From IMG/VR virus record IMGVR_UViG_2718218171_000001: a stretch of DNA of 38,764 bases. One strand, 5' to 3'. A program made the translations under genes and the position numbers. Under the pieces are notes generated by a model that did no database searches, was not told where the DNA came from, and saw only the letters and a list, made by a program, of their open reading frames with translations. How positions within the stretch are numbered: the stretch's first letter is position 1; each line of letters opens with the position of its first letter. This stretch comes from a virus. Lineage: Duplodnaviria; Heunggongvirae; Uroviricota; Caudoviricetes. Shown here piece by piece: positions 957 through 2,300 of this stretch.

Positions 957-2300
957 TNNTGCNTTGACNNNNTGANGNAGANNNCACAGTTCNCGNNATG
1001 NTNGCGGNAGTNTGCTAANGGTCANNAGGNNNNNNNCGNCAGCCNNGCGATGATAANNGTNGCGNCNTATNAAAATCNGACNTGCTCGNCNNGNNANNGN
1101 ACGCNNGNTNTCNNNNNCAGCNNNCTGNCGGTNCNTNTGCACNAATANCNNGNTTACNNGTNATGNCANCCTTACCNNGNNNGNNNTGGTTGANNTGNAC
1201 GNNNNNCAGNGNNNGGGANGCCAGNNTTAGCCNGTCAGNNNNGAANGCGCNNNCGATGTATNGCNTGNCGTACTTNNTANCNNNGNCNNTANACGGNGTN
1301 AGCAGNAACCTGAGNANATCGCTNTCNGNANANNNTTNNGNNNNNATNNTGTANNACCANTNNNCTGACNCNNNCTCNGGNNTNANANNGANTTGTNANA
1401 CNGTNANTNNNNTGTNCCAGAANNNTNCNNCTCTNCNGGNTNNAGNNGNANNNCANCNGNTGNNCNNNNCNGNTNNNCAGTNANGNTGTCANCNGNCGTT
1501 ANNGNCNNNNNTTCNNNNNTNNTNNANCNGNNGAANNATNNTANGCNGNTNTNCTNNCGNCNNNNNNNNNAACNNNNNGNGNNNNGNNCNNNTNNNTAAT
1601 NNNGANCNNNNNNATNNNNGNGTNNNNTNAACNTNNNGNNNANNNNGNNCNGNTNNNNGNTGNNGATNNCNNTNANCNNNNCNGNTGNNGNGNNNNNCTT
1701 NNANNNNANNCANNANNANNNNNNNTCNTNATNNNNCNNANANNNNGNNGNNNGGNNNCCNNNATNNNGNNANNTNNNNNANNNNNNNNNNNTGNNATCA
1801 NNNNANGNTNNNNNNGNNNNNNNNNNNNCNGANTNCNNNCANNTNTNNNNTNGNTNCANNNNNNNATANNGNNGNNANNNGNCNNGNNGNNGGTNNNACN
1901 GNANNNNNNNTNNNNGNAANNNGCNNNTNNNNCNNNNGNGGNATNNANNNNTNANNANCNANNNNNCTGNGGGNNNNNNCNNNCTGCANANNNNCNANNT
2001 GNTNGNCNNNNNTNANANCNNNNGNGNANGANNNNCGNNNNNGNGACANANNNTCNGNNNGGNNAANNGNGNTNNNGNNANNCNNNNNGNNNTNANNTNN
2101 TNNATGNNNGTCNNNNNANNNNNNCTNNNNNNNANNAGNNTNNANAANNGNNNNNTNGNTNNNNNCNTNTNNNNNNTNNNCCNNNNTNANNNTNNNTNNN
2201 NGNNNNCNCTNACCNNNCNGTNNTNANTGANNTNNNTNCNNNATTNNNNNNNGNNCCACNNNCNNNGNCNNNNNCANNANNGNANNCANNNNNNNAANNN
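957..2300. other. Ambiguity (N)-masked block; sequence content not interpretable
   Basis: From about 957 the sequence is progressively replaced by n, over 80 percent n by about 1500; clean sequence resumes abruptly at 2302. Confidence 0.95.

Follow-up and report, generated by a model that had tools for sequence, protein, structure and literature searches.

The closest described counterpart of this locus is CPS-53 (KplE1), a 10-kb prophage remnant of E. coli K-12 that carries yfdP, yfdQ, yfdR and torI. In this remnant a 127-nt spacer separates yfdQ from yfdR, and yfdS (DUF551) and yfdT are situated between yfdR and torI. YfdR is an HD-domain, YfbR-like protein that binds domain I of DnaA, and initiation at oriC is inhibited when yfdQ-yfdR together with yfdS or yfdT are present in multicopy or over-supplied (PMC4776307). 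Work cited in that paper is quoted there as describing YfdR as a structural homologue of YfbR with a much lower nucleotide affinity.

The whole stretch of DNA analysed here, 38,764 nt long and called the window below, has yfdP, yfdQ, yfdR and torI in the same order and on the same strand as K-12, with the same 127-nt spacer. Unlike the K-12 remnant, however, it is a prophage of full length (38.8 kb), whose early genes are lambdoid and whose late genes are those of an SfV/SfII-like myovirus. The order yfdP-yfdQ-yfdR-...-torI runs on one strand, and the integrase (37607-38764) is located at the opposite prophage end. In KplE1, too, the integrase and torI occupy opposite ends, with attP between them. 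The window begins exactly at the stop codon of torI/xis (1-201) and ends exactly at the start codon of the integrase, and it looks like an integrated prophage that has been trimmed to gene boundaries. Identity to the K-12 proteins is 100% for TorI, 100% for the reference YfdQ (268/269 for the part readable in the window) and 98% for the reference YfdR allele. The window differs from K-12 between yfdR and torI, where a PAPS-reductase-like gene and a gene for a 114-aa protein are found instead of yfdS and yfdT. The features of this region are as follows.

1..201, minus strand: torI/xis, recombination directionality factor
333..677, minus strand: 114-aa hypothetical gene, phrog_660
674..1591, minus strand: PAPS-reductase-like gene (PP-loop ATP pyrophosphatase family), 292 aa in the references; placed by reference annotation and mapping
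958..2301, no strand: degraded block, which exceeds the true 1,265-nt interval by 79 positions (inserted: 69 letters and 10 Ns)
1582..2154, minus strand: yfdR, HD-domain 5'-deoxynucleotidase-like, 178 aa, wholly inside the block; placed by mapping
2155..2285 (131 positions), minus strand: yfdQ-yfdR spacer, 127 nt in the references; placed by mapping
2286..3110, minus strand: yfdQ (DUF2303, 274 aa), PF10065; placed by mapping

The yfdR-xis module is mosaic across E. coli prophages, as seen when window positions 333-1591 are set against loci L013-L022 and K-12 (L023, 4512-5179). It holds either the PAPS-reductase-like gene (292 aa) and the 114-aa gene, or yfdS (120 aa, DUF551) with yfdT (101 aa) or a 71-aa gene. 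The yfdQ-spacer-yfdR unit is constant across these prophages. In the references, the 114-aa gene is always paired with the PAPS-reductase-like gene.

Flanks and reference loci

Window positions 1-3300 were matched in 3,865 of 5,426 complete E. coli genomes. The best match was NZ_CP060073 (E. coli G4/9, locus L001), with 0 differences over the left flank (1-957) and 2 differences over the right flank (2302-3300), although the remainder of the G4/9 prophage is a remnant, unlike the window. The minus-strand annotation of this genome reads torI, a 114-aa hypothetical protein, a 292-aa 'phosphoadenosine phosphosulfate reductase family protein', yfdR (5'-deoxynucleotidase), yfdQ and yfdP. Four further intact loci (L003, L004, L005 and L008) have the same genes (WP_000335006.1, WP_000008187.1 and WP_000081278.1), and all 556 aligned letters of the window agree with these loci as well as with G4/9.

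From one flanking 40-mer of the block to the other, these five intact loci, which were the ones measured, have an identical interval of 1,265 nt, which in NZ_CP060073 occupies 1424312-1425576. Over this interval the five reference chromosomes have clean sequence, whereas the corresponding 1,344 positions of the window are degraded. In every E. coli match listed, the span was 78-79 nt below that of the query, and the 1,344-nt spacing was not found in the listed E. coli matches, the five intact loci, viral_contigs or genome_contigs. Relatives retrieved through the exact 114-aa or repressor protein, an allele-specific 81-mer or the masked pattern were without Ns, and none of these relatives was identical to the window.

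The degraded block

The Ns of the window, 719 in all, begin at 958 and end at 2301, and none is outside this 1,344-position interval. Clean sequence resumes at 2302, and both the boundaries and the progressive onset of Ns given in the preliminary description were borne out. The description that bases are replaced by n holds in part. Replacement did occur, but Ns make up only 53% of the block, the remaining 625 positions are readable A/C/G/T letters, and 79 symbols have been inserted, which amounts to degradation and not to masking alone. Counted per 50 nt, Ns number 15-19 at 951-1350, 28-37 at 1501-2300 and zero from 2302. Expressed as a share, they account for 30-38% of positions at 951-1350 and ~56% by 1500-1550, followed by a plateau of 58-74% up to 2300. 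Overall, the density rises from ~30% to ~65% and stops sharply at 2301/2302, and a ramp-plus-plateau or a two-level model of the N rate fits far better than one in which the rate is constant. Neither in the PAPS-reductase-like gene nor in yfdR are the Ns biased towards a codon position (p = 0.12-0.94). They are also free of autocorrelation, and their run statistics deviate by at most 1.4 sd from independent draws at the local density. A true G is masked less often inside the block (48%) than A, C or T (57-59%).

The block was aligned to the reference with an N-tolerant scheme using symmetric penalties. This gave 556 matches, 0 substitutions, 0 deletions and 709 Ns over a reference base, and the extra symbols relative to the reference consisted of 69 inserted letters (G 24, A 18, C 14, T 13) and 10 inserted Ns, which account for the 79 positions by which the block exceeds the 1,265-nt interval. 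The alignment score was +319. The controls, four shuffled references together with the reverse complement, scored between -516 and -582, and each of them required more than 100 mismatches and 45-66 deletions. The preliminary description held that nothing inside the block could be verified; this is no longer tenable, since the 625 surviving letters identify the content at these scores. A half-masked stretch thus stays fully identifiable through N-tolerant alignment to its relatives. A standard alignment with cheap gaps was rejected, as it shredded the block and produced 45 apparent mismatches, all of which became inserted letters beside Ns on re-scoring. As a group, the inserted junk letters are G-rich (24/69).

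The insertions are scattered from 1004 (first) to 2258 (last), with a maximum of 12 per 100 nt, and the offset from the reference, taken per 100 nt, runs 0, 12, 23, 27, 35, 38, 39, 45, 52, 63, 69, 74, 75, 79. This steady growth means that the block hides no contiguous foreign segment. In a diagonal analysis every 60-nt bin agreed with the reference, perfectly so at 1370-1429 (33/33) and 2150-2209 (17/17). A pattern retaining the insertions (window 985-1125, 92 specified bases) had no match in viral_contigs or genome_contigs. As a positive control, a masked pattern free of insertions (2110-2239, with 45 bases specified) recovered E. coli chromosomes. The 709 hidden bases are taken from the references and were not read from the window; at a flank divergence of ~0.1%, roughly one difference is expected among them. 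In the densest part of the block (1750-1950, ~70% N), the placement of single insertions is not unique.

The absence of substitutions and deletions, together with independent Ns that lack a codon phase, argues for technical degradation and not for divergence, and leaves no place for a novel hidden gene. It is thus very nearly certain that block 958-2301 is a technically degraded copy of an ordinary 1,265-nt early-left stretch of a CPS-53/KplE1/SfV-like E. coli prophage. The ordinary stretch would belong to the pL-side operon on the minus strand. About half of its true bases have been turned into N, independently at each position and with a probability rising from ~0.3 to ~0.65, and 79 extra symbols, mostly A/C/G/T, have been added here and there, with the true bases neither substituted nor deleted. 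In the order of transcription, the underlying sequence, as reconstructed from the surviving letters and the five identical references, would consist of the last 5 codons of yfdQ, the 127-nt spacer with a hairpin, yfdR and the first 198 codons of the PAPS-reductase-like gene. The remainder of this gene, the 114-aa gene and torI/xis then follow in clean sequence. Judged from the alignment, the hidden content is ordinary and made up of already known E. coli prophage genes, and the block itself is a data-quality artefact.

Genes beneath the block

The clean flanks match the early-left region of the CPS-53/KplE1 type, and the synteny with such regions that had been proposed was confirmed against K-12 (torI ... 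yfdR-yfdQ-yfdP). The block had been expected to hold two or so small minus-strand genes. There are indeed two, both on the minus strand, and a minus-strand PAPS-reductase-like gene and yfdR could be mapped under the block by the comparison with homologous prophages that had been recommended. However, the PAPS-reductase-like gene is not small and extends outside the block (674-957). The clipping of the 3' end of yfdQ was likewise correct, though only 16 nt are lost (2286-2301, 5 codons and the stop).

The clean part of the PAPS-reductase-like gene (674-957) comprises the last 94 codons including the stop and is 100% identical to the reference. In the degraded part (958-1591), codons 1-198 are hidden and the coordinates are inflated by 39 spurious positions. 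The surviving letters of this part match the PAPS-reductase allele, and yfdS and yfdT are absent from this module. All hidden codons that could be determined match the reference proteins, with 39/39 in the PAPS-reductase-like gene and 6/6 in yfdR. The reference protein matches PF01507 at 35.3 bits (cut-off 22.5) over residues 5-71, a portion that is under the block in the window, and its translation shows an N-terminal PP-loop motif, SFSGGRTS, of the SGGxxS type. It also matches phrog_424 at 3e-91. The equivalog for CysH-type phosphoadenylyl-sulfate reductases (NF002537) scored 20.5 bits against a cut-off of 154, and the best match in a defence library was SspD (1.2e-14). On these profile scores the assignment is at family level only, and 'PAPS reductase' is to be read as an annotation label. 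The literature was searched for PAPS-reductase-like genes of prophages whose function has been tested, and nothing decisive emerged.

As in the references, yfdR and the start of the PAPS-reductase-like gene share 10 nt. In the window, 203 letters of yfdR survive, including 6 full codons, and all are consistent with the reference. The reference YfdR is identical to K-12 YfdR at 175 of 178 residues and matches phrog_318 at 2.6e-109. Its profile scores were 24.3 bits for PF12917 (YfbR-like), against a cut-off of 25.9, and 19.9 for NF003009, against 122, and one relative was found in the PDB, 2gz4 (Atu1052), with E = 5.5e-13. At 12-13 informative surviving positions, the window has the L001 allele and not that of L010 or L011, which are viral contigs.

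The spacer contains a perfect 9-bp hairpin, AAATGCCCC-TGCG-GGGGCATTT, at ~2250-2273 (L001 3173-3194, minus strand), 13 nt past the yfdQ stop. No T-tract was found behind the hairpin, and it was not called by a terminator scan. The clean codons of yfdQ are identical to K-12 and reference YfdQ at 268 of 269 positions, the one difference being D100N, and YfdQ matches PF10065 at 311.9 bits over profile positions 2-269 of 269. Beyond yfdQ, the ORF finder listed a 226-aa frame (3176-3856, minus strand), the C-terminal 120 aa of which correspond to YfdP. The N-terminal extension of this frame had no family match and is probably a mere open frame upstream of the true YfdP start.

The X-rich open reading frames reported inside the block had been dismissed as artefacts, and rightly so: they arise because codons containing N are never read as stops. 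Examples are a frame at 1163-2230 (plus strand) and a 627-aa run-on of yfdQ at 1227-3110 (minus strand). The consequence is one of annotation hygiene only. Open reading frames should not be mined from the block, where coordinates are inflated by up to 79 positions, the end of yfdQ should be set at 2286 and not at 1227, and the gene list of the prophage should gain yfdR and a full-length PAPS-reductase-like gene.

Origin of the degradation

The technical degradation could have arisen in two ways, either as a low-quality stretch in the source record or as an algorithmic corruption applied afterwards. Like low-quality read tails and N-masked stretches, the block shows a rising N density, spurious extra calls and an abrupt end. 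The tails produced by real base-callers contain clustered Ns, under-calls and miscalls. Unlike such tails, the block has no deletions or substitutions, its Ns are independent, and its inserted letters are unmasked and are not homopolymer extensions (only 4 of the 69 repeat a neighbouring base). A read-tail model is therefore disfavoured, and the statistics of the degradation look more algorithmic than base-caller-like. Two simple synthetic models were also tried and rejected, as neither gives the observed split of 69 letters to 10 Ns. Insertion followed by masking gave ~28 letters and ~51 Ns in simulation, and masking followed by the insertion of random bases that are never masked gave ~54 letters and ~25 Ns.

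Another reading is that the block is a consensus of at least two divergent alleles, derived from collapsed paralogous prophages or from an alignment, in which N is written wherever the copies disagree and extra columns appear where one copy is gapped. The mosaic nature of the lambdoid region would provide such copies, as some genomes have yfdS/yfdT downstream of yfdR and not the PAPS-reductase-like and 114-aa genes, but the edges of the block at 958 and 2301 do not coincide with the boundaries of mosaic modules. The alleles of yfdR do vary among contigs; however, the 12-13 sites at which the known alleles differ show the L001 letter and not N. The N density is roughly two-level, with a step near the PAPS-reductase/yfdR junction, yet the Ns are statistically independent from base to base, and neither gene shows the excess of them at third codon positions that would be expected between homologous coding alleles. 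Moreover, the extra symbols are 79 scattered single ones with no compensating deletions. An allele consensus is therefore highly improbable, even if it fares best among the readings other than technical degradation.

It is slightly less probable still that the 79 extra positions include real ones, for instance a short insertion or frameshift in yfdR at ~1775-1905, the part in which the N density is highest and the placement of the alignment least certain. If this were true, yfdR of this prophage would be altered or inactivated.

The chance is a little smaller again that the underlying copy of the operon had genuinely decayed, becoming pseudogenised by many real single-base insertions, and was partly N-masked afterwards. 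The 69 inserted symbols are real letters and not Ns, but their occurrence (1004 to 2258) is restricted to where Ns occur, and the spacing that they create is absent from viral_contigs and genome_contigs. Over 1,265 nt, 79 insertions accompanied by neither a deletion nor a substitution do not form a mutational spectrum. Frameshifts do build up in cryptic prophages, CPS-53 among them, and L001 annotates one frameshifted neighbour; here, however, both flanks keep 99.9-100% identity to intact references as far as the very edges of the block.

Only its 79 additional positions suggest that the block hides something that the references lack, for example a non-coding element, an insertion element or a further small gene, and this reading can for practical purposes be discarded. 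Within each 60-nt bin the surviving letters remain colinear with the reference, the 556 aligned letters match without exception, and the excess never builds up faster than 12 positions per 100 nt, leaving no room for a contiguous foreign segment beyond a few bases.

Two further regions of the window may be mentioned. At 11677-14511 (minus strand), a C5 cytosine DNA methylase (346 aa, PF00145 3e-59) is encoded directly downstream of a 596-aa AAA_15/AAA_21 ATPase. The PADLOC matches of the ATPase are HEC-04 (2e-36) and ATPase-Toprim_I-B (1e-24), with weaker matches to AriA, GajA, PtuA and Old. From these matches, the pair looks like a moron made up of an OLD/Gabija-like nuclease and a methylase, which occupies the opposite strand where the early-right genes give way to the late ones. 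At 36342-37466 (minus strand), a gene for a 374-aa membrane acyltransferase (Acyl_transf_3, 1.3e-28) adjoins the integrase, at the site where serotype-converting phages of Shigella and E. coli carry O-antigen modification genes.
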